From: Laspinema sp. D2d
Lineage (GTDB): Bacteria; Cyanobacteriota; Cyanobacteriia; Cyanobacteriales; Laspinemataceae
Direction: 5' to 3'
DNA: 48,363 bases
NCBI RefSeq assembly: GCF_025370755.1
Contig: NZ_JAMXFC010000004.1
Coordinates: 209,505 to 257,867 of the forward strand
The notes below the pieces were generated by a model. That model was not told where the DNA came from, searched no databases, and worked only from the letters and a program-made list of their open reading frames with translations. The translations under genes and the position numbers were made by a program. Positions within the stretch are counted from its first letter, which is position 1; the number at the start of each line of letters is the position of its first letter. Below are positions 3,231 through 26,802 of the stretch, piece after piece.

Positions 3231-5330
3231 ATGAGTGCCTTGGGCCGCTGTTTAATTCTTACCCGTCAAATCCCAACTTTTATGTTGCTATTTAAACCCG
3301 AAGATTGTTTAATTTTAGTGGTAGATGACGTCAGACAAAATCTACAGGTCATTGGTGAAATATTAGAATTAGCGGGGTATGAAACCACATTTGCCCCGAG
3401 TGGTCAACAAGCTTTGTCTCGGGTAAAAACCGCCCAGCCGGATTTAATTCTTCTGGATTTAATGATGCCTGAAATGAGCGGAATAGAAGTCTGTGAAATT
3501 TTAAAAAAAGACCCTGATTTTAGCGAAATTCCGATTATTTTTTTAACCGCTAGTAATGAGATAGATAATTTATTGCAAGCTTTTAAAAAGGGAGCAAATG
3601 ATTATATCACCAAACCCTTTCGCTCCGAGGAAATTTTAGTTAGAATTGAAGCTCAGTTAACTAATAAAAAGCTCAAGCAAAAGCTCGAAGAAAAAAATCA
3701 GGAACTGGAGGCAGAAATTGGGGTTCGGCGACGCACGGAAGAATCCCTACAACAGGCCATAGAGTTAGCGAATGCCGCGAATCGGGCCAAAAGTAGCTTT
3801 CTAGCTAATATGAGCCATGAGTTGCGGACTCCTCTGAATGCAATTCTCGGGTTCACTCAGTTGTTGACCCATAGTTCCAACCTCACCCTAGAGCAAAAAA
3901 ATAATTTAAGCATTATTCATCGCAGTGGTGAACATCTTCTCAAGTTAATTAATGATATTTTAGATTTATCAAAAGAGGAAGAAGGGGAAATTACGGTAAC
4001 CCCATTTATCTTAAAAGATATATTGGTCGAACTTCAAGAAGTGTTTGCCCTGAAACTGCGAGAAAAAGGGCTTAAATTAGAAATTTTAGTAGAAAATCGG
4101 GTCCCGACCACCATTGAAAGCGATCGGCTCAAACTCCAGCAAATTTTAACCAACCTCCTGAGTAATGCCATTAAATTTACCTTCTCCGGAGGAATTAAAT
4201 TACGGGTCAATGCCATCTTAGACCCGGAAAAAACATGGTTAAGTTTTGAAGTAACTGATACCGGCATCGGGATCAGTCCCGAGGACCTTAGCAAACTATT
4301 CCAACCATTTGTACAGACGGAAACGGGCCTAGTTAACCCAGAAGGGGCAGGACTTGGGTTAGTGATCTGTCGTAAATATGTGCGCCTGTTAGGGGGAGAA
4401 ATTACCGTCAGTTCGGAACCCAATAGGGGAACTACGTTTAAATTTCAAATTGTTGTGAAGCCCGTAGAACCCAAGCACTCCGATAAAGAGCCCGATCCTA
4501 CCCTCCATCGCATTTTGGTGGCTGATGAGGAAGCCACGAACCGGGAAGTCTTAACCACTATGCTCTCATCCGAAGGATTTGAGGTGAGAGAAGCCAAAAA
4601 TGGTCAAGAAGCCCTAGAAATTTACCACAGTTTTGAACCCCATTTAATCTGGATGGATGTGCGAATATCCCTGGTGGATGGATGCGAAGCCGCCCAACAG
4701 ATTAAAGCAACTTCTAAAACATCCATCCCCCCCATTATCGCCATGACTACCCGGATTGTTGAGAAAGATAAAGACTCGATTTTATTGGCTGGATATGATG
4801 ATTTCCTCGTTAAACCGATTCAAAAATCTCAAGTTTTTGAAAAAATTTTTAAACACTTAGGGGTCCCGGACACTTTTGAAAAAATCCCGCCTAGTGAAAG
4901 TAATCAGTTGCGTTGGAAAAATTTCAAAAAATTACCTACGTCCATGCTTTGTGACCTAGAATATGCAACTTTAGCCCTGGATGATGACCGACTCGATCGC
5001 TTGCTTCCAGAAATTCCCCCAGAATGCGGCGAATTAGAACAAAATATTCGAGATTGTCTGGAAAATTTTGAGTATCAAATTATTTTGGATGCGATTAAAT
5101 CGGCTAAAATTGAACGGTTTGCCCACTCCCACTTGATCAGTGAATGGATGATGCAGATGACCCAGGCGGTCCATACGGCTGATCTCAGTGAAATCAAGGA
5201 ACTGATTGCTCGACTCCAACCACAAAATAGCGCATTAGCTAACCAGTTAGAATATCATTTAGGGAATTTAGATTATCAAAATATTCTCCGGGCGATCGCA
5301 GACTTGGAGGAAACCCAATCTCCAGATTAA
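3231..5330 (+). CDS. Hybrid histidine kinase/response regulator with REC-HisKA-HATPase-REC and a roughly 170-aa C-terminal tail. The true start is probably the ATG at 3282 (MLLFKPEDCLILVVDD).
   Basis: Motifs present: N-terminal receiver (LILLDLMMPEMSGIEV), H-box SHELRTPLNAILGF, G-boxes GAGLGLVICRKY, second receiver (ILVADEE...WMDVRISLVDG). The N-terminal half is noticeably AT-rich. Confidence 0.9.
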   Translation: MSALGRCLILTRQIPTFMLLFKPEDCLILVVDDVRQNLQVIGEILELAGYETTFAPSGQQALSRVKTAQPDLILLDLMMPEMSGIEVCEILKKDPDFSEIPIIFLTASNEIDNLLQAFKKGANDYITKPFRSEEILVRIEAQLTNKKLKQKLEEKNQELEAEIGVRRRTEESLQQAIELANAANRAKSSFLANMSHELRTPLNAILGFTQLLTHSSNLTLEQKNNLSIIHRSGEHLLKLINDILDLSKEEEGEITVTPFILKDILVELQEVFALKLREKGLKLEILVENRVPTTIESDRLKLQQILTNLLSNAIKFTFSGGIKLRVNAILDPEKTWLSFEVTDTGIGISPEDLSKLFQPFVQTETGLVNPEGAGLGLVICRKYVRLLGGEITVSSEPNRGTTFKFQIVVKPVEPKHSDKEPDPTLHRILVADEEATNREVLTTMLSSEGFEVREAKNGQEALEIYHSFEPHLIWMDVRISLVDGCEAAQQIKATSKTSIPPIIAMTTRIVEKDKDSILLAGYDDFLVKPIQKSQVFEKIFKHLGVPDTFEKIPPSESNQLRWKNFKKLPTSMLCDLEYATLALDDDRLDRLLPEIPPECGELEQNIRDCLENFEYQIILDAIKSAKIERFAHSHLISEWMMQMTQAVHTADLSEIKELIARLQPQNSALANQLEYHLGNLDYQNILRAIADLEETQSPD

Positions 5331-18574: not shown

Positions 18575-19723
18575 CTACAATCGACTCTTCAGCCAATTTA
18601 ACCAACCGGAACCCCGGCGGTTTGTTTTGGCTGTTGGTTGATTGGCAACCCATTGATTTAACTCTAGGGCAGTGGGAAACGGCACAGGGCTACTATAGCG
18701 CGATCGCAAGGGTTTCGCTAACGCATTATTATCTTCCCGTAACCCTTCATAAAAAAATAACACCTCTCCCGGAAGCCCACAAGCCCGATTGTAGTCGATC
18801 GCACTCAACAAATATTCCGGACTAATCCGATATTTGCCTAACTTAATCAAAATCCCTGGAGAAATGCGCGGTAACTGTTCGGAAAAACAAGGGCTGTTTA
18901 CCATTTGATTAACCACCCGTTGATAACTCTGAAAATCCCGGCGATAAATCTGAGGATGCATCAAATCTGTCAAGCCTCGGTTCAGCCAGGTTTGAGAATC
19001 TTGCAGGTATTCATTTAAACACCACGGATAAATATTGGGGGAAAGGGAAACCAATAAATTTGGATTAATTCCCTTAATTTGTTGAGACAGTTGCGATAAA
19101 AATTCCGTGAGTAAATCCGCCCGCCATTGCAACCACTGGGAGTCTTGACAATTGGACGGGGGATCGCACTGAAAGGTCTGACGATAAAGGTTTCGGGTAA
19201 ACTCATCGTAGCCCCCTTCTCGGGGGAATGCCGGGAGGCGATCATCTCCTTGGATACCTGCGATCGCGTAATTTTGGACCACTTCTAAAATTAACTGGGA
19301 CAAGAAATTTTGAACCTCTGGGTGCAAGGCATTCATCCACTCAAACCCATTTTTGTTGAGAAGATTTCCCGAGAGGTCTTTGGCGGCCCATTCCGGTTTT
19401 TTTTGCAGTACCATTCCCCCATTAGACTGATAGGAACTGGCGAATCCATATTCAAACCAGGGAATCACGGCAATCCCACAGGACTTCGCCGCTGCAATCA
19501 GTTCACCTAAAGGGTCTCGACCTTGATAGAGGGGATCAATTTCCATGCCAAAGGTCTCCCTTAAAACCCGACTGGGATAGAGGGTTAATCCTTTGGTCCA
19601 GACGACCGGAAAAATTACATTAAATCCTGTCTCGGCGAGAAAGGCGACTGCTTCATTGATTTTTTCTTGGGATCGGAAGACTTGACTATCGGTAGTCGTC
19701 ATCCAAACGCCGCGTATTTCCAT
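18575..19723 (-). CDS. GHL10 (glycoside hydrolase-like family 10, YngK-type) protein, paralog 1
   Basis: IRGVWMTTTDSQVF, then an (alpha/beta)8-like succession and WFEYGF. Related to the ORFs at 37748-39304 and 45967-47697. Confidence 0.75.
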   Translation of the reverse strand: MEIRGVWMTTTDSQVFRSQEKINEAVAFLAETGFNVIFPVVWTKGLTLYPSRVLRETFGMEIDPLYQGRDPLGELIAAAKSCGIAVIPWFEYGFASSYQSNGGMVLQKKPEWAAKDLSGNLLNKNGFEWMNALHPEVQNFLSQLILEVVQNYAIAGIQGDDRLPAFPREGGYDEFTRNLYRQTFQCDPPSNCQDSQWLQWRADLLTEFLSQLSQQIKGINPNLLVSLSPNIYPWCLNEYLQDSQTWLNRGLTDLMHPQIYRRDFQSYQRVVNQMVNSPCFSEQLPRISPGILIKLGKYRISPEYLLSAIDYNRACGLPGEVLFFYEGLREDNNALAKPLRSRYSSPVPFPTALELNQWVANQPTAKTNRRGSGWLNWLKSRL

Positions 19724-19851: not shown

Positions 19852-20088
19852 CTAAGCGATCGCTTTTTCTAGGTACGGTTCTATCAGGGTCTCTGTCAGC
19901 AATTGCTGATCAAGTTCGCCCAGTTGTGTGGCAACTCCATCCCAACTACACAGGTTTTCTACTCGTTCTCGGGATGCTTCTTTGAGGCGATCGCCCCAGG
20001 TGGGATTGGACAGAATCCGATCAATCGCTTCAGCAAATGCCGCATCCTCTTGGGGTGGACAGAGTAATCCTGTTTCTTCGGCTTTCAC
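19852..20088 (-). pseudogene. C-terminal remnant of a GT4-type glycosyltransferase (78 codons, no upstream body)
   Basis: The translation LLCPPQEDAAFAEAIDRILSNPTWGDRLKEASRERVENLCSWDGVA resembles the C-terminal tail of GT-B glycosyltransferases (consensus from memory: L-V-P-P-x-D-x-x-A-L-A-x-A-I-x-x-L-L ... R-E-R-V-x-x-x-F-S-W). The upstream frame hits a stop within 15 codons. Confidence 0.45.
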
Positions 20089-20801: not shown

Positions 20802-20813
20802 TCAAGACACCTT

Positions 20814-20902
20814 GGAGAGGTGGCTGAGTGGTTGAAAGCGGCAGATTGCTAATCTGTTTTACGGTTTTAATCGTAACGAGGGTTCGAATCCCTCCCTCTC
20901 CG
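20814..20902 (+). tRNA. tRNA-Ser (anticodon GCU), class II with long variable arm
   Basis: GGAGAGG acceptor paired with CCTCTCC, D-loop AGUGGUUGAAAGC, anticodon loop uuGCUaa, long extra arm, T-arm GAGGGTTCGAATCCCTC, discriminator G. CCA is not encoded. Confidence 0.9.
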
Positions 20903-21016
20903 TTGTGAAAGCACTAAGGCTCCGATAAAACTCACCTGAGTTAATGATCGGCAACTCTGAGCAGATCTCAGCAAATGCTGGAGTTGAATGAGTCAGTGTA
21001 GAGCAATTTAGTTTAG

Positions 21017-21057
21017 AAATCCCCCACCCCTTGCAAAAGTCGTGGGGGATTTTTTAT
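21017..21057. terminator. Bidirectional hairpin terminator between tRNA-Ser (+) and the convergent minus-strand gene
   Basis: AAATCCCCCAC-(13 nt)-GTGGGGGATTTTTTAT. A/T runs on both sides. Confidence 0.7.
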
Positions 21058-21083
21058 GGTGGTTGGGTTCCCTGGAGCGATCG

Positions 21084-21926
21084 CTACCAGCGATAACCAA
21101 CACCGATATAGCCAACGGGGAAGGGAATTACATCATCAAAGTAGTACAACCCTGCACCAATATTACCCCCAGCGTACCAGCCATTATCCCATTGATAATC
21201 GCCACCGATGGTCGCATAGGGTAACGCCAAGGCTAGGGTTCCTACCCCCCAGGATCCCGTAAACTGTCCGGGAACCGCAGGCTGAAAGTATTTTTTGTAG
21301 GAGACGCCGAGTGACAGGTTAATACCTAGGACGCTATCAACTCCCTCGCCGTCCATCCTCACCCATCCAAAGTTGGGTAAATCAAAACCGGCGCTGTAGC
21401 GATAATTGGGAAAACGAGCCTGAGCCAGATCCGATTCCGAGGGGGATTGCGCTTCGGTGTTTTCCGGAAGAATAGCGGCCTCCCTTACGAAGTCCTCTTT
21501 ATTAAAATCAATGGATAGTTCCAAATCCTCAAGAACTGCGGGGTCAGTTTCCGTCAGTGGCGCGATCGCCGTTTCCCCTTCTTCCTGAGTTGATAGTGCT
21601 TCCAGACCTATTTCCGGGGAAGATTGCACTTCGGTGGTTTCTGGAAGGATAGCGGCATCCTTTACGAAGTCCCCTTGATTAAAGTCTATGGACAGTTCAA
21701 AATCCTCAAGAACTGCGGGGTCAGTTTCCGTCAGTGGCGCGATCGCCGTTTCCCCTTCTTCCTGAGTCGGTTGTGCCTCCAGATCCATCGGCCAGTGCCT
21801 CTCCACACTGGGTTGCTCTGGGAGACTGGGATATTGTGCGGTAGCCGGTAGGGTCTGTTGGATTGCTAACCAAGGCAATACCATCAAAGCACTATATCCG
21901 GCCCATTTTTTCCTCACACCCATCAT
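21084..21926 (-). CDS. Secreted protein: signal peptide, acidic region with a 59-aa in-frame tandem duplication, and a Gly/aromatic beta-rich C-terminal domain ending in W (putative outer-membrane beta-barrel-type)
   Basis: Signal peptide MGVRKKWAGYSALMVLPWLAIQQTLPATA. The duplicated module is QEEGETAIAPLTETDPAVLED(F/L)ELSIDFN. The C-terminus GWYAGGNIGAGLYYF...VGYIGVGYRW is paralogous to the C-terminus of the 22368-23163 ORF. Confidence 0.7.
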   Translation of the reverse strand: MMGVRKKWAGYSALMVLPWLAIQQTLPATAQYPSLPEQPSVERHWPMDLEAQPTQEEGETAIAPLTETDPAVLEDFELSIDFNQGDFVKDAAILPETTEVQSSPEIGLEALSTQEEGETAIAPLTETDPAVLEDLELSIDFNKEDFVREAAILPENTEAQSPSESDLAQARFPNYRYSAGFDLPNFGWVRMDGEGVDSVLGINLSLGVSYKKYFQPAVPGQFTGSWGVGTLALALPYATIGGDYQWDNGWYAGGNIGAGLYYFDDVIPFPVGYIGVGYRW

Positions 21927-22367
21927 AAGCCCTCCAAATTCATCAATAAACGTGAATTATTTTGCTTTGTTTTTGCATGAGTTCGGGTTTATAAAAAGTA
22001 AATTGGATTGGAAATGAATTGGCGATTGAACGCCAGAAATTCTTGAGAATAAAGCACCGAGATATTCCCCATAAATCCGCGTGTTCCATAAACCGCGAAA
22101 TCCACAAACTCAAAGCAAAAACTCTTAGCAATCTGCCATTCCAGGGCAAAAATTGGATAACCCAGAAGGGCAGATACTAAAACATTGTTAATGTAATCCA
22201 TCCCACTCCAAGATGCAATCTTCCCTGAGATGTATTTTCTTTGTTATGTAAACAAAACTTAACAAATAGTGGAAGGAGGAATACTACGCTTTTACTGAAG
22301 ATGGAGGGAAAGGGCGATCGCTGATTCCGATCACGAACCTATCGGAAAGGGGTTACGGCAAAGGCAT

Positions 22368-23163
22368 TTAAAACCGATACCCTCCGCCAACAAAGATTCC
22401 CACTTCAACCTCCTCAACATACCCAACATTTAAGGCAGCGTTAGCGACAAATCGGTCAAATAAGACTCGATCAATTCCCACCGTGCCAAAAAATCCAATG
22501 AAATTATCCTCATCCGTTGAAAGCGCAATGCCACTGCCGATATAAGGCGCAAGATCGACTTGTAAGCTATCGTCCGTATCCGCAAAGGGAAAGTCAATGG
22601 TGACCGGGACAAGCAGCATCAAGTCTTCTCCAAATAACAGGGAAGGACGGACAGACACTTGCTCGGCGAGGCCAATTTTACTTGTTAAGGCAAAACTTCC
22701 ACCTCCCAGGGGACTAGCATCATCACTTAACCCAACATTAATGGCAGCACCGATATAGTTACCCACGCCCCGACTGGTTCGACCCAGTTCAATATCGTTA
22801 TTTCGTTGAGCCAAAACCGGATGATTTTCCGCTTCAGTCGCAGGGTTTTGGGGAACGGTTTGCTGGTCGGGGATCCTGAAGTAATGGGGGGTGGCGATCG
22901 CTGTTGTTCCCGTCAATAATTCCGCCACATTTCCCGATTCAGTCGCGAGTAATGGCGGTGGATTTCCCCCCTCAGATTGGACTTCCCAGGAGAGCGGTTG
23001 AACGAAGGTATCCTCCGGCAACTGAGCGATCGCCTTTAACCCCAATTCCCTAGCCATATCTCCTGAGAATGATTCAGCCATCGCTTTTTTTGGACCACTC
23101 CCGCCCGGGAGAGCCATCAGACCCAATAAAAAAATACCCGTTGCGATCGATAGAAACTTCACA
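22368..23163 (-). CDS. Secreted beta-rich protein, a paralog of 21084-21926 in its C-terminal domain (start taken at the GTG after a GGAG RBS)
   Basis: Signal peptide (M)KFLSIATGIFLLGLMALPGG. The C-terminus ...NVGYVEEVEVGIFVGGGYRF ends in an aromatic residue. The ORF track extends to 23186. Confidence 0.65.
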
Positions 23164-23353
23164 ATTACTCCTAATAGGTACTTCAATGTTAAATGGGAGA
23201 AATTTTATTCTGAAAAGCCAAATTCAGCTTTAACGAATGCATCGCCCTCCGCAGACCCCCCCAGAACCTGACTCCGCGCCCAACCCAGGCGATCGCCTTG
23301 AGCTTGCACCCAGAACATCCTCACCCCCAAAAAACGCCAAAACCAGTCCCGTG

Positions 23354-24316
23354 TTACAGTGAACCCACCGCACTGGCAACTTGTTGGGAAACAAAAGGCA
23401 AAATCGCTTCATTTTTGCTGTGCGCCTTCCCTTCGGTAAAGACCACCAATAAATAAGGGCGCTGTTCCGGTAATTCAATATAAGCTGCATCGTGGCGAAC
23501 TGTACTGGTTAAACCAGCTTTAGACCAAATCCGACTCTGGCGATCGAGACCCGCACCCAAAAACCCGGTTACTTGATTTTCCGGGTCCTCCGCCAGGTCC
23601 TCGGGTTCTAGCGATCGCTTCATTAACTTCATCATCGCCGTAGTCGCTTTCGCCGAAACCGCTACCCCACCGACAATACTATGCAAGAGCCGTGCCGTCG
23701 CATTGGTGGTCAGCATATTGCGATTTTCCATTAACTCTCCCAGGAAAACCCGCTCGCGACCATAAGCCCCATCACACCAGGTTTTGTGATTAACATTGAT
23801 GGATTCCAATTCCGGCCATCCCAGAGACTGAAAGTAGCGATTGACTAAATTGCGCTGGTGCTTCCAGGTTTCAAACGGTCCTGGGGACAATTCTGGACCA
23901 CTGGTGGTCCCGGTTAACACATCCACCACCAGACTCGTGGCATCATTGCTGGAGTCCACAATCATATCTCGGATGGCCCGTTCTAACTCGGGGGACGTCT
24001 GAATCATCTCTTTTTCAATCCATTCATAGACCGCAACGAGATAGAACAGCTTGACCACACTGGCGGGATAAATCCGTTCCACGCCACGATAGTTAAATCC
24101 GCGAACAGGATGGTCCCAAAATGCATCGGGACTCAGGGCACCGCCAGTATTCACCGATACGGGTGGGTCATAAACCACCCAGGTCATTGCCAGTTGGTTG
24201 CGGTTTAATTGGGGGAATTGCTCCCAGGTTGCCGCTAGAATGCGATCGCCTAGGGTTTCGAGTTGCTCGTCTTTGCGGAAAAATGTCATGGTTCTCTCTG
24301 CGGTTGTTTGATTCAA
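23354..24316 (-). CDS. Class A beta-lactamase-like serine hydrolase
   Basis: SxxK motif (ASVVKL) at about residue 75, an SDN-like (DSSND) element, and a C-terminal KAG-type (SKAG) triad. Confidence 0.75.
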   Translation of the reverse strand: MNQTTAERTMTFFRKDEQLETLGDRILAATWEQFPQLNRNQLAMTWVVYDPPVSVNTGGALSPDAFWDHPVRGFNYRGVERIYPASVVKLFYLVAVYEWIEKEMIQTSPELERAIRDMIVDSSNDATSLVVDVLTGTTSGPELSPGPFETWKHQRNLVNRYFQSLGWPELESINVNHKTWCDGAYGRERVFLGELMENRNMLTTNATARLLHSIVGGVAVSAKATTAMMKLMKRSLEPEDLAEDPENQVTGFLGAGLDRQSRIWSKAGLTSTVRHDAAYIELPEQRPYLLVVFTEGKAHSKNEAILPFVSQQVASAVGSL

Positions 24317-24411
24317 AAGTTAGAAGTCAGAATCAATTATTCTCTCTTCTAGCGACTTTCCTACGGCAGTCGCGTTACTGTGCCTTAACAATTAAGCCTT
24401 GATTTCTAACT

Positions 24412-25137
24412 ATGGTTTCTCTGAGTCAGCTTCAATTTAATCTAGCTTCTAAAGGGTCCGATGCACCGCAATATCGATGCCGAGTCGATCTCAATCTGTA
24501 TGATTCCCCCCAGTGCGAGGCCCTGGCAACCCAGGCATCCGAGGGCCGTCTGCTGAAAATTGTCCTCCCTCCGTCGGAGGGGGCTGTAGAGGTCAAATTA
24601 TGTGAAGATGACTATCCCGGATGGGTAGCACTCACGGATTTGGAGCATCTGGACTTAGCCGAGTCCCCTTACCAGGCGATCGCCCGGGACCGGACCCAAA
24701 TAGAACCCCAAATCCCCGCTATCATTGCCTTTACCCACCAGGCCATGAGCGTCCCTAATGAGTATCTGTGGGGAGGAACCGTCCCCCCCAACTATGACTG
24801 TTCTGGGTTAATGCAGGCCGCCTTCCGCACTGCTGAAGTTTGGTTACCTCGGGATGCCTATCAACAGGAAGCCTTTACCCAACCTATTCCCCTGGAGGAA
24901 TTACAGGCGGGGGATCTCGTCTTTTTTGGAACCCCAGAAAAAGCCACTCATGTGGGTCTTTATCTCGGCGAAGGTCGTTATATCCACAGTTCCGGGAAAA
25001 AAGTAGGGCGCAACGGCATCGGCATCGATGTCCTCTCCGCAAACAGCGATGATCCCGTCAGTCGTTGCTATTATCAACAACTCCGAGGTGCAGGGCGAGT
25101 TTTAAGGAGTTATTTGCCCCAAGACTCGGAAATCTAA
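24412..25137 (+). CDS. SH3b-NlpC/P60 (C40) cell-wall peptidase
   Basis: An N-terminal SH3b-like beta domain, then the catalytic Cys in YDCSGLMQAAF and downstream HVGLYLGEGRYIHSSG (His). Confidence 0.85.
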   Translation: MVSLSQLQFNLASKGSDAPQYRCRVDLNLYDSPQCEALATQASEGRLLKIVLPPSEGAVEVKLCEDDYPGWVALTDLEHLDLAESPYQAIARDRTQIEPQIPAIIAFTHQAMSVPNEYLWGGTVPPNYDCSGLMQAAFRTAEVWLPRDAYQQEAFTQPIPLEELQAGDLVFFGTPEKATHVGLYLGEGRYIHSSGKKVGRNGIGIDVLSANSDDPVSRCYYQQLRGAGRVLRSYLPQDSEI

Positions 25138-25322: not shown

Positions 25323-26651
25323 TTGTCGTTACTCGACCGATGCCCGAGCTCAGTCATTTGTTGCAGTGGAAGAAAAGGAACCAAGGTTTTGAAGGTATTT
25401 TTAGAGATAGAGCCGCAGCGTCGTCATAGCCTGTTGGGATTATTTGCGGCAGGCTTATTATTTTGGTCTTCTCTGGCTTCATTGCTGCCCACACTGCCGC
25501 TTTATGTCGAGCATATCGGGGGAACCAAAGGACAAATCGGGTTGGTCATGGGGGCATTTGCCCTGGGGTTACTCCCTTCCCGGGCTTGGTTAGGACCCCT
25601 GAGCGATCGCCGGGGTCGGAAAATTGTATTACGCTTGGGGACCCTTGTGGCAACGATCGCCCCGTTAGGATATCTCTTCGTCGATTCCATTCCCCTGTTG
25701 ATGGCATTACGGGCATTTCACGGCATTAGTATCGCTGCTTTTACCACGGCTTATAGTGCCTTAATCACCGATTTAGCCCCCGATCGCAATCGGGGCGAAT
25801 TGATTGGATATATGAGTTTGGTCAATCCTTTAGGGGTTGCCATTGGACCCGCCCTCGGAGGGTTTTTATTGGAAGCTGCCGGTTACCCACCCCTCTTTGT
25901 CATGGCATTTGGATTGGGACTACTCAGCTTCCTGTTACTCTATTTCGTCAGTGAACCTCTACGGGAGGATTTAAGCGCCCCCGCACTGGGCAAAGACTCG
26001 GAAAATCCCACCGCCAAAGCCGATTCGTTTTGGGGGCTGTTATGGAGTCCTCGGGTCCGAATTCCCTCCCTAGTCATGCTGCAAATTGGGTTAGTCTTTG
26101 GATTGGTAGCGACCTTTGTCTCTTTGTTTATTAAGGAGACAGTCAGTGATTTTAATCCGGGATGGTTTTATACCGCAGCAGCTATTGTGAGTTTTAGTAT
26201 GCGTCTGCTCACGGGTCGCGCCTCGGACCGTTACGGACGCGGACTCTTTATCTCCGGGGGTTTGCTGGCGTACTGTGTGGCAATGGTTTTGCTGTGGACT
26301 GCCCAGGATAGCCGGGATTTTTTACTGGCTGGGGCGGTAGAAGGATGTGGTGCCGGAATGTTTCTGCCGATGATGGTGGCCCTCGTTGCAGACCGCTGTG
26401 CACCCAAGGAACGGGGGCGATTGTTTGCGCTGTGTATTGGCGGGTTTGATTTGGGGATTGCTCTAGCGGGACCCATTGTGGGGGTTTTGGCAGAAGATAT
26501 AGGCTATCGAAATATTTTCGCGATCGCCTCGGTGCTGGCGTTCTTAGCCTTGGGGATTTTTCTCACCCAGTCCAATATGAATTTACGCCACTCGGTGAAG
26601 TTTGCCCTCGGTCGCGATCGCGACCTCTATGCCCTGCAAAAATCCTCCTGA
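25323..26651 (+). CDS. MFS transporter (12 TM). The true start is probably downstream of 25323.
   Basis: Twelve hydrophobic helices. MFS-like GRxxDRxGRK motif (LSDRRGRKIV) between TM2 and TM3. The first roughly 35 codons are non-hydrophobic and overlap other frames. Confidence 0.8.
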   Translation: MSLLDRCPSSVICCSGRKGTKVLKVFLEIEPQRRHSLLGLFAAGLLFWSSLASLLPTLPLYVEHIGGTKGQIGLVMGAFALGLLPSRAWLGPLSDRRGRKIVLRLGTLVATIAPLGYLFVDSIPLLMALRAFHGISIAAFTTAYSALITDLAPDRNRGELIGYMSLVNPLGVAIGPALGGFLLEAAGYPPLFVMAFGLGLLSFLLLYFVSEPLREDLSAPALGKDSENPTAKADSFWGLLWSPRVRIPSLVMLQIGLVFGLVATFVSLFIKETVSDFNPGWFYTAAAIVSFSMRLLTGRASDRYGRGLFISGGLLAYCVAMVLLWTAQDSRDFLLAGAVEGCGAGMFLPMMVALVADRCAPKERGRLFALCIGGFDLGIALAGPIVGVLAEDIGYRNIFAIASVLAFLALGIFLTQSNMNLRHSVKFALGRDRDLYALQKSS

Positions 26652-26728: not shown

Positions 26729-26802
26729 CGGGCTAGGAGGGATTCGAACCCCCGACACCGTGGTCCGTAGCCACGTGCTCTAGTCCACTGAGCTACAAGC
26801 CC
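26729..26802 (-). tRNA. tRNA-Arg (anticodon ACG)
   Basis: Reverse complement GGGCTTGTAGCTCAGTGGACTAGAGCACGTGGCTACGGACCACGGTGTCGGGGGTTCGAATCCCTCCTAGCCCG. Anticodon loop cuACGga, T-loop TTCGAAT. There is one U-U mismatch in the acceptor stem. Confidence 0.85.

Follow-up and report, generated by a model that had tools for sequence, protein, structure and literature searches.

A conserved cyanobacterial gene neighbourhood in Laspinema sp. D2d with a candidate murein-peptide recycling pair at its core

Do four adjacent genes that seem to belong to the cell envelope form one functional module, or do they merely share a place on the chromosome? This question is raised by a locus in the cyanobacterium Laspinema sp. 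D2d (contig NZ_JAMXFC010000004.1), situated within a stretch of 48,363 nucleotides that was analysed as a whole (positions 209,505 to 257,867 of the contig; hereafter the window, to which all coordinates refer). A scan of region 21084-25137 yields four open reading frames (ORFs), of which A, B and C are on the minus strand and D is on the plus strand. A preliminary description had listed the same four and viewed them as a single envelope-remodelling module: two paralogous secreted proteins, a beta-lactamase-like hydrolase and a wall peptidase, flanked by tRNA genes. We find that the locus is ordinary chromosome: it is not a mobile element, and the four genes do not make up one machine. Our preferred reading, to which we assign about even chances, is that of an old conserved neighbourhood whose core would be a pair of genes, C and D, for the cytoplasmic recycling of murein peptides.

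21084-21926, minus strand: gene A, ORF of 280 amino acids
22368-23162, minus strand: gene B, 264 amino acids from a GTG start; the ORF reaches TTG 23186 (272 amino acids)
23354-24289, minus strand: gene C, 311 amino acids from an ATG start; the ORF reaches TTG 24316 (320 amino acids)
24290-24411: divergent intergenic region between C and D, 122 nucleotides
24412-25137, plus strand: gene D, ORF of 241 amino acids

Conservation of the C/D pair

To compare gene order we used 80 loci with relatives of C, taken from one genome per species and searched with tblastn and hidden Markov models (HMMs). Sufficient sequence upstream of C to look for D was available in 72 loci, and 64 could be tested for a B-like gene after C. 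The comparison shows that the conserved unit is the C/D pair and not the set of four genes. The divergent orientation of D relative to C, already pointed out for Laspinema, recurs in 61 of the 72 testable loci, and in 59 of these 61 the two genes are within 600 nucleotides of each other. By contrast, in 30 of the 64 testable loci C is followed by a B-like gene on the same strand, and A occurs in 10 loci only, in each case after B (the Laspinema / Oscillatoria acuminata clade and Phormidium CCY1219). A lack of synteny in related genomes, named in the preliminary description as evidence against it, is not what we see: synteny holds for C and D and in part for B, but A is confined to one small lineage.

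Loci containing C carry names as diverse as Oscillatoria, Leptolyngbyaceae, Coleofasciculaceae, Chroococcidiopsis, Calothrix and Tolypothrix, among others. The C/D pair persists even between orders that have lost other synteny, and Geitlerinema PCC 7407, whose genome is complete, retains it with different genes on both flanks. The distance between the two genes ranges from 3 to 317 nucleotides among 47 extracted spacers, with start codons only 3 to 25 nucleotides apart in several loci; inspection of these 47 spacers by eye reveals no shared motif. We found no paper on the C family or on its pairing with D.

Protein families of D and C and their possible shared role

Gene D contains the two domains that had been proposed for it, both recognised by Pfam:

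24496-24642, plus strand: SH3b domain of D (SH3_16, residues 29-77, 1.6e-15)
24760-25008, plus strand: NlpC/P60 domain of D (NLPC_P60, residues 117-199, 2.1e-27)

A search of the PDB with D returns two cyanobacterial enzymes of known structure, AvPCP of Anabaena variabilis (2HBW, E 2.6e-89, residues 6-237) and NpPCP of Nostoc punctiforme (2EVR, E 3e-88, full length). In the 2HBW alignment the catalytic triad C130/H180/H192 occupies the corresponding AvPCP columns (NYDCSG, ATHVG and YIHSSG), and Y68 (DDYPGW) and D148 (LPRDAYQQ) are identical to Tyr64 and Asp144 of AvPCP. The latter two residues bind the N-terminal L-Ala by its free amine and mark the recycling amidases off from wall lysins (PMC4600125). 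Given the full-length match and the conservation of both the catalytic and the L-Ala-recognition residues, sequence comparison clearly identifies D as an AvPCP/NpPCP ortholog, that is, a gamma-D-Glu-L-diamino-acid endopeptidase of a kind already known. Domain layout, Cys/His/His triad, Tyr/Asp pair and absence of a signal peptide are all the same, such that there is no real difference except the origin of D in a different cyanobacterial order. In cyanobacteria, the enzymes of this group have no signal peptide and are regarded as stem-peptide recycling enzymes, their activity having been deduced from structure, docking and the biochemistry of YkfC (PMC2954226, PMC4600125). The N-terminus of D, inspected by eye, likewise shows no hydrophobic segment and no signal peptide, and the enzyme is most probably cytoplasmic.

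Gene C is less easily placed. Pfam assigns it to Beta-lactamase2 (PF13354; 64.6 bits against a cut-off of 22, E 1e-17), though the match covers residues 157-294 and thus the C-terminal half only. At least 7993 homologs were found; the best 120 are 76-98% identical to C and match PF13354 without exception (120/120), and outside the Laspinema clade the identity across cyanobacterial orders is still unusually high (66-83%). Since nearly all homologs are 311-316 amino acids long and begin with MTFFRKDE, the true start of C is most likely ATG 24289 (311 amino acids) and not TTG 24316. The SxxK motif noticed in the preliminary description is indeed present. In the numbering of the 320-residue ORF the three motifs read S86-V-V-K89, S122-S-N124 and K266-A-G268; the residues S86, K89, S122, N124, K266, A267 and G268 are invariant in 19 diverse homologs, and the motif residues are at least 90% conserved in 81 sequences from genome loci. 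C therefore appears to be a catalytically intact acyl-serine hydrolase with the fold of class A beta-lactamases and PBP-A. Its N-terminus (MTFFRKDEQLETLGDRIL) is hydrophilic and conserved in homologs; inspection of this N-terminus finds no signal peptide, and the protein is apparently cytoplasmic.

When the profile of the C family is compared with the PDB, the best match is the cyanobacterial penicillin-binding protein (PBP) PBP-A Tll2115 (2J7V, E 0.031, 16 bits), with SxxK, SxN and KxG aligned in order with STIK, SDN and KTG. PBP-A, however, is an exported enzyme, whereas C lacks a signal peptide; C also reads K-A-G where PBP-A has K-T-G, and its N-terminus is extended by about 40 residues. 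As the match reaches only E 0.03, C is placed outside the PBP-A family, and its sequence does not make it a member of the class A beta-lactamases either. Searches for a solved or named close relative found none, those of the PDB (single sequence and profile) being marginal and those of NCBIfam sub-threshold. C hence represents an uncharacterised family inside a known superfamily, named no further than 'serine hydrolase'.

One might still ask whether C is a genuine class A beta-lactamase and, as such, an antibiotic-resistance gene. The Beta-lactamase2 match, the presence of SxxK and SxN and weak matches to PER-type enzymes would be in line with this. Yet the NCBIfam class A model (bla_class_A) gives 29.4 bits where its cut-off is 200, the PDB class A enzymes match only at E >0.05 (0.06 or higher), and the third motif is K-A-G in place of the usual K-T/S-G. 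Moreover, C has no signal peptide, whereas the periplasm is where the beta-lactamases of diderm bacteria work, and C is encoded by a chromosomal gene that is highly conserved and near-universal in cyanobacteria. We consider this explanation very improbable.

How, then, could C and D work together? SxxK enzymes of the beta-lactamase/PBP fold characteristically act on peptides ending in D-Ala. Taking this together with the chemistry of D and the lack of signal peptides, a shared role is the most economical assumption: C and D would both belong to a cytoplasmic pathway that degrades the murein stem peptides recovered in cell-wall turnover. C would most likely trim the C-terminal D-Ala from tetra- and pentapeptides, which we take as its presumed substrates. 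The product of C would be split next by D, which would cut the gamma-D-Glu-meso-diaminopimelate bond of free stem peptides with a free N-terminal L-Ala. Accordingly worded, C would be a functional stand-in for the unrelated LD-carboxypeptidases LdcA/YkfA, whose step comes before that of the endopeptidase in Escherichia coli and Bacillus subtilis (PMC2954226). As a mere speculation, B might pass wall fragments across the outer membrane. While the identity of D, the fold class and conserved motifs of C, the lack of signal peptides in both, the C/D synteny and the barrel fold of B come from the comparisons and the model, the substrate of C, the functional coupling of C and D and any role of B or A in this pathway are what we infer.

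The nearest known system is the ykfABCD operon of B. subtilis, encoding among others the LD-carboxypeptidase YkfA, the epimerase YkfB and the endopeptidase YkfC. There, too, a cytoplasmic YkfC-type endopeptidase is genetically linked to a second peptide hydrolase, and the logic would be alike in that D-Ala is trimmed first and the gamma-D-Glu-diaminopimelate bond is cut next (PMC2954226). Differences are nonetheless considerable: C has a beta-lactamase fold and not the S66 LD-carboxypeptidase fold; no S66 LD-carboxypeptidase, enolase-type epimerase or peptide ABC transporter gene is adjacent within 18.5-27.9 kb; and the two genes are arranged divergently instead of in an operon.

A competing explanation is that C and D are neighbours simply by inherited order or because they share promoter space, with C acting on something that has no relation to peptidoglycan, such as another metabolite containing a D-amino acid or an ester or amide bond. 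It fits with this that C has no assigned function in the NCBIfam and PDB searches, that the C/D intergenic region has no conserved motif, that the pairing is missing in 11 of the 72 loci, and that the tRNA genes and moaC of this neighbourhood are likewise syntenic without an obvious functional link. On the other hand, mere inheritance of gene order does not readily account for a pair that survives the replacement of both its flanks (as in Geitlerinema PCC 7407) and is kept across orders where the remaining synteny has decayed. The general preference of SxxK-fold enzymes for D-Ala-terminated peptides argues in the same direction, as does the nearest solved relative of C, PBP-A, which is a cyanobacterial DD-peptidase acting on muropeptides (PMC11189452). 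Overall, we regard inherited order as somewhat unlikely, but it deserves to be taken seriously.

Several observations weigh against the recycling pair as we propose it. The murein-peptide role of C is deduced solely from its fold, motifs and neighbourhood, and we know of no precedent for a cytoplasmic DD- or LD-carboxypeptidase of the beta-lactamase fold. The third motif deviates (K-A-G), and a general base comparable to the omega-loop Glu166 could not be located in C, whose conserved segments G186-R-E188-R and N198-R-N200 could not be mapped from sequence onto Glu166/Asn170. Absence of a signal peptide in C and D was judged by inspection instead of a dedicated predictor. Because the 80 loci were chosen as those matching C best, the sample is skewed toward relatives of the query. 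In 11 of the 72 loci D is not adjacent to C.

A further point concerns what lies on the other side of D. In 28 loci an ArnC-like glycosyltransferase gene of family 2 (GT2) is found directly 3' of D, followed by a gene for a transporter of the major facilitator superfamily (MFS). Given this frequent linkage, it could be argued that D is tied to some other process. The GT2 protein is highly conserved and matches an undecaprenyl-phosphate glycosyltransferase model (NF007986) with 257 bits, which is below the cut-off; in locus L069 its gene (4294-5304 of that locus, minus strand) overlaps D by 4 nucleotides. In the Laspinema clade GT2 is missing from the site between D and the MFS gene, and no copy is present in the 48-kb window. 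The MFS gene itself is syntenic 3' of D in approximately 30 loci and has only sub-threshold NCBIfam matches.

A more far-reaching version of the recycling pair would hold that C represents a cyanobacteria-wide family of cytoplasmic carboxypeptidases, which together with D makes up the missing branch of stem-peptide recycling, LdcA/YkfA having been replaced non-orthologously and B possibly passing muropeptides. In this complete form we find the idea rather unlikely.

Peptidoglycan turnover and recycling are barely characterised in cyanobacteria; the literature we found for this group describes released anhydro-muropeptides and the periplasmic PBP-A, and no cytoplasmic stem-peptide pathway. C and D offer a concrete two-gene hypothesis that can be tested in the Anabaena and Nostoc models, for which a structure of D exists. 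A recycling pair with a cytoplasmic beta-lactamase-fold enzyme would be a new form of a familiar kind of system, and nothing here contradicts established biology. If true, it would extend the range of the PBP/beta-lactamase fold to cytoplasmic recycling and would bear on the diversification of class-A-like enzymes within cyanobacteria. Otherwise the analysis still serves as a correction: two supposed 'envelope' genes are apparently cytoplasmic, the secreted proteins A and B are unrelated, and the annotation of B seems too short.

The secreted proteins B and A

The features of the region covered by B and A are as follows:

22371-22766, minus strand: predicted barrel domain of B (residues 141-272 in the numbering of the 272-residue ORF)
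21927-22367: spacer between A and B, 441 base pairs, with three overlapping small ORFs (70, 68 and 53 amino acids)
21445-21783, minus strand: tandem duplication in the linker of A (177 base pairs or 59 amino acids, 1.9 copies, 90% identity), found with TRF
21087-21416, minus strand: C-terminal domain of A (residues 171-280)

As the preliminary description stated, both proteins end in an aromatic residue (GYRW in A, GYRF in B). Both also have a hydrophobic, signal-like N-terminus that is conserved in homologs. For B, inspection suggests cleavage between AMA and E. An AGGAG sequence precedes GTG 23162, which is most likely the start codon. The public annotation of B (237 amino acids, from MAESF) would remove the conserved signal peptide; either GTG 23162 or TTG 23186 fits the alignment of homologs better.

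AlphaFold, run with a 13-sequence alignment, predicts disorder for approximately residues 22-140 of B, followed by a closed antiparallel barrel of eight strands, with a predicted local distance difference test score (pLDDT) of 80-91 across most of residues 141-272. The structure prediction thereby bears out the barrel expected for B, whereas the HMM check does not, as neither OMP_b-brl nor related Pfam models of outer-membrane proteins (OMPs) match the protein. Judging from the model, B is a new, sequence-divergent, small outer-membrane barrel protein with a long disordered linker. From other eight-stranded barrels (OmpW, the N-domain of OprF/OmpA, NspA, PagL, OmpX) it differs in having no significant match to Pfam OMP families, in the unusual linker of about 100 amino acids ahead of the barrel, and in lacking an OmpA-like periplasmic domain. 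Among 25 relatives of B from loci L012-L068 compared with Pfam, one hits PF13505 at 0.083 and four weakly hit PF24653, at 0.0074 or higher. PF24653 describes a cyanophage outer-membrane-protein-like barrel, and in BFVD the model of B likewise finds OMP barrels of phages. At the level of the fold, small OMPs like B are thus common to cyanobacteria and their phages.

The distance from the stop codon of C to GTG 23162 of B is 191 nucleotides, in which no convincing terminator was found, and B may be co-transcribed with C. Co-transcription of all three minus-strand genes (C, B and A) would be a further extension of this idea.

Gene A has GGAGG located 5 nucleotides upstream of its ATG. The encoded protein consists of a signal peptide (probable cleavage between ATA and Q, after residue 30), an acidic and proline-rich linker, and a C-terminal domain of 110 residues rich in glycine (17%) and aromatic residues (20%). 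Only 16 homologs were found, all of them in the Laspinema / O. acuminata / Phormidium CCY1219 group. Since locus L015 shows the order C, B, tRNA-Ser without A, the gene was inserted between B and tRNA-Ser in one lineage. Relatives carry either one-copy alleles (219-221 amino acids) or two-copy alleles (278-282 amino acids) of the duplicated linker segment, so that closely related strains differ in the length of the linker.

No Pfam or NCBIfam family matches A. An exhaustive profile search nevertheless collects 104 representatives at E<=1e-3, most matches being confined to the C-terminal domain. Most of these relatives are 115-155 amino acids long, begin with a signal peptide and end in an aromatic residue; those that are named are all called 'hypothetical protein'. 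Ten remote relatives compared with Pfam give no significant match within the domain; the N-terminal CsgG/DUF3280 match of one of them (P0197) lies outside it. The genomic context of one relative of the domain was uninformative. On sequence grounds A can be said to belong to an undescribed family of small secreted proteins. Its fold is less clear: the AlphaFold model (16-sequence alignment) has a mean pLDDT of 32.8, which is too low for use, a PDB search with the A profile gives nothing significant (its top entry, an OMP of Acinetobacter, aligns over 27 residues with E 0.05), and the alternating-hydrophobicity score of the domain is 0.72, against 1.15 for B, and does not exceed that of A's own linker.

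The claim that A and B are paralogs was not borne out. BLASTP aligns them with E 0.52, and hhalign gives a probability of 0.3%, then 7.8% with profiles of 38 and 25 sequences. Both families have, directly in front of the beta-rich C-terminal domain, an [LV]-A-Q junction (residues ~165-172 in A and ~124-130 in B), after which basic residues are often found; it was the sole segment matched in the first hhalign comparison of A and B.

The spacer between A and B is 73-89% identical at the nucleotide level in 9 related loci and has no Rfam match. It may be non-coding, as its three small ORFs lie in frames that score alike and these frames are broken in loci L002 and L008. The numbering of the NCBI locus tags (NG796_04530, NG796_04540) implies that a feature has been annotated in it.

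With these results the original proposal can be weighed, namely that all four genes form one periplasmic and outer-membrane remodelling module in which A and B are paralogous barrels, C is secreted and D is bound to the wall. Parts of it are sound: B is predicted to be an outer-membrane barrel, A and B have signal peptides, the family of D does work on peptides derived from peptidoglycan, and other genomes have genes for an ArnC-like polyprenyl-phosphate glycosyltransferase and an MFS transporter in the wider neighbourhood. The common location, however, is largely refuted by sequence for C and D, neither of which has a signal peptide (for the family of D, see PMC2954226), and the Tyr/Asp pair of D limits activity to free stem peptides as opposed to the intact wall (PMC4600125). 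Nor do the remaining genes behave as parts of one module: A and B are not detectably homologous, A is restricted to 10 of the loci examined, and 34 of the 64 testable loci have no B-like gene after C. We therefore judge the four-gene module to be quite improbable.

The tRNA genes and flanking sequence

The surroundings of the four genes contain these further features:

20813-20903, plus strand: tRNA-Ser(GCT), found with ARAGORN (Rfam tRNA model, 65 bits)
21028-21058: GC-rich hairpin followed by a T-run, between tRNA-Ser and the 3' end of A (terminator scan)
25323-26651, plus strand: MFS transporter gene 3' of D (Pfam MFS_1, 6e-61)
26729-26802, minus strand: tRNA-Arg(ACG), found with ARAGORN, between the MFS gene and moaC

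The tRNA genes said to flank the cluster are both present, although tRNA-Arg is separated from it by the MFS gene. As boundaries they have no meaning. tRNA-Ser(GCT) is located downstream of C/B/A in loci L002, L004, L007, L009, L010, L015, L019 and L081, which represent several orders, and tRNA-Arg(ACG) lies between the MFS gene and moaC in loci L002-L069, from Laspinema to the heterocystous Dulcicalothrix (Nostocales). Both tRNAs are thus part of the conserved neighbourhood and not the borders of an island. The stability of this tRNA-Ser and tRNA-Arg neighbourhood across several cyanobacterial orders (L002-L081) is unusual.

The idea that the segment between the two tRNAs might be a horizontally acquired island derives from the tRNA genes on both sides and from the lineage-restricted gene A, which adjoins tRNA-Ser. 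We rejected it, as the GC content of the A-D region (0.47-0.51) is like that of the remainder of the window and both tRNAs and the intervening genes are syntenic across orders. In addition, the 18.5-27.9 kb region encodes GHL10, A, B, C, D, MFS, MoaC and a membrane protein, with no integrase or mobile-element gene. At most A alone is a local insertion; acquisition of the whole segment is barely credible.

Scans of the region for other elements gave little. None of the PADLOC defence-system models matched, only the two tRNAs exceeded the Rfam thresholds, the promoter scan remained at chance level, and the hairpin sites of the terminator scan were not above shuffled expectation. The hairpin at 21028-21058 looks terminator-like and would possibly be bidirectional.

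Some minor observations concern the sequence around and beyond tRNA-Ser. A sub-threshold Rfam match to the plastid psbI-rps4 3' untranslated region (20849-20902, minus strand, 61.5 bits where 68 is needed) is antisense to tRNA-Ser; instead of marking an element of its own, it probably reflects a trnS gene in the corresponding plastid locus. Further away, after about 700 base pairs without ORFs, lies a 78-amino-acid ORF (19852-20088, minus strand) that matches only the C-terminal ~60 residues of family 4 (GT4) glycosyltransferases and is probably a gene remnant. Next to it, at 18575-19723 (minus strand), a GHL10 (PF02638) glycosyl-hydrolase-like protein is encoded, with no signal peptide and no NCBIfam name; in the Laspinema clade and in Phormidium CCY1219 its gene has a conserved position on the far side of tRNA-Ser.

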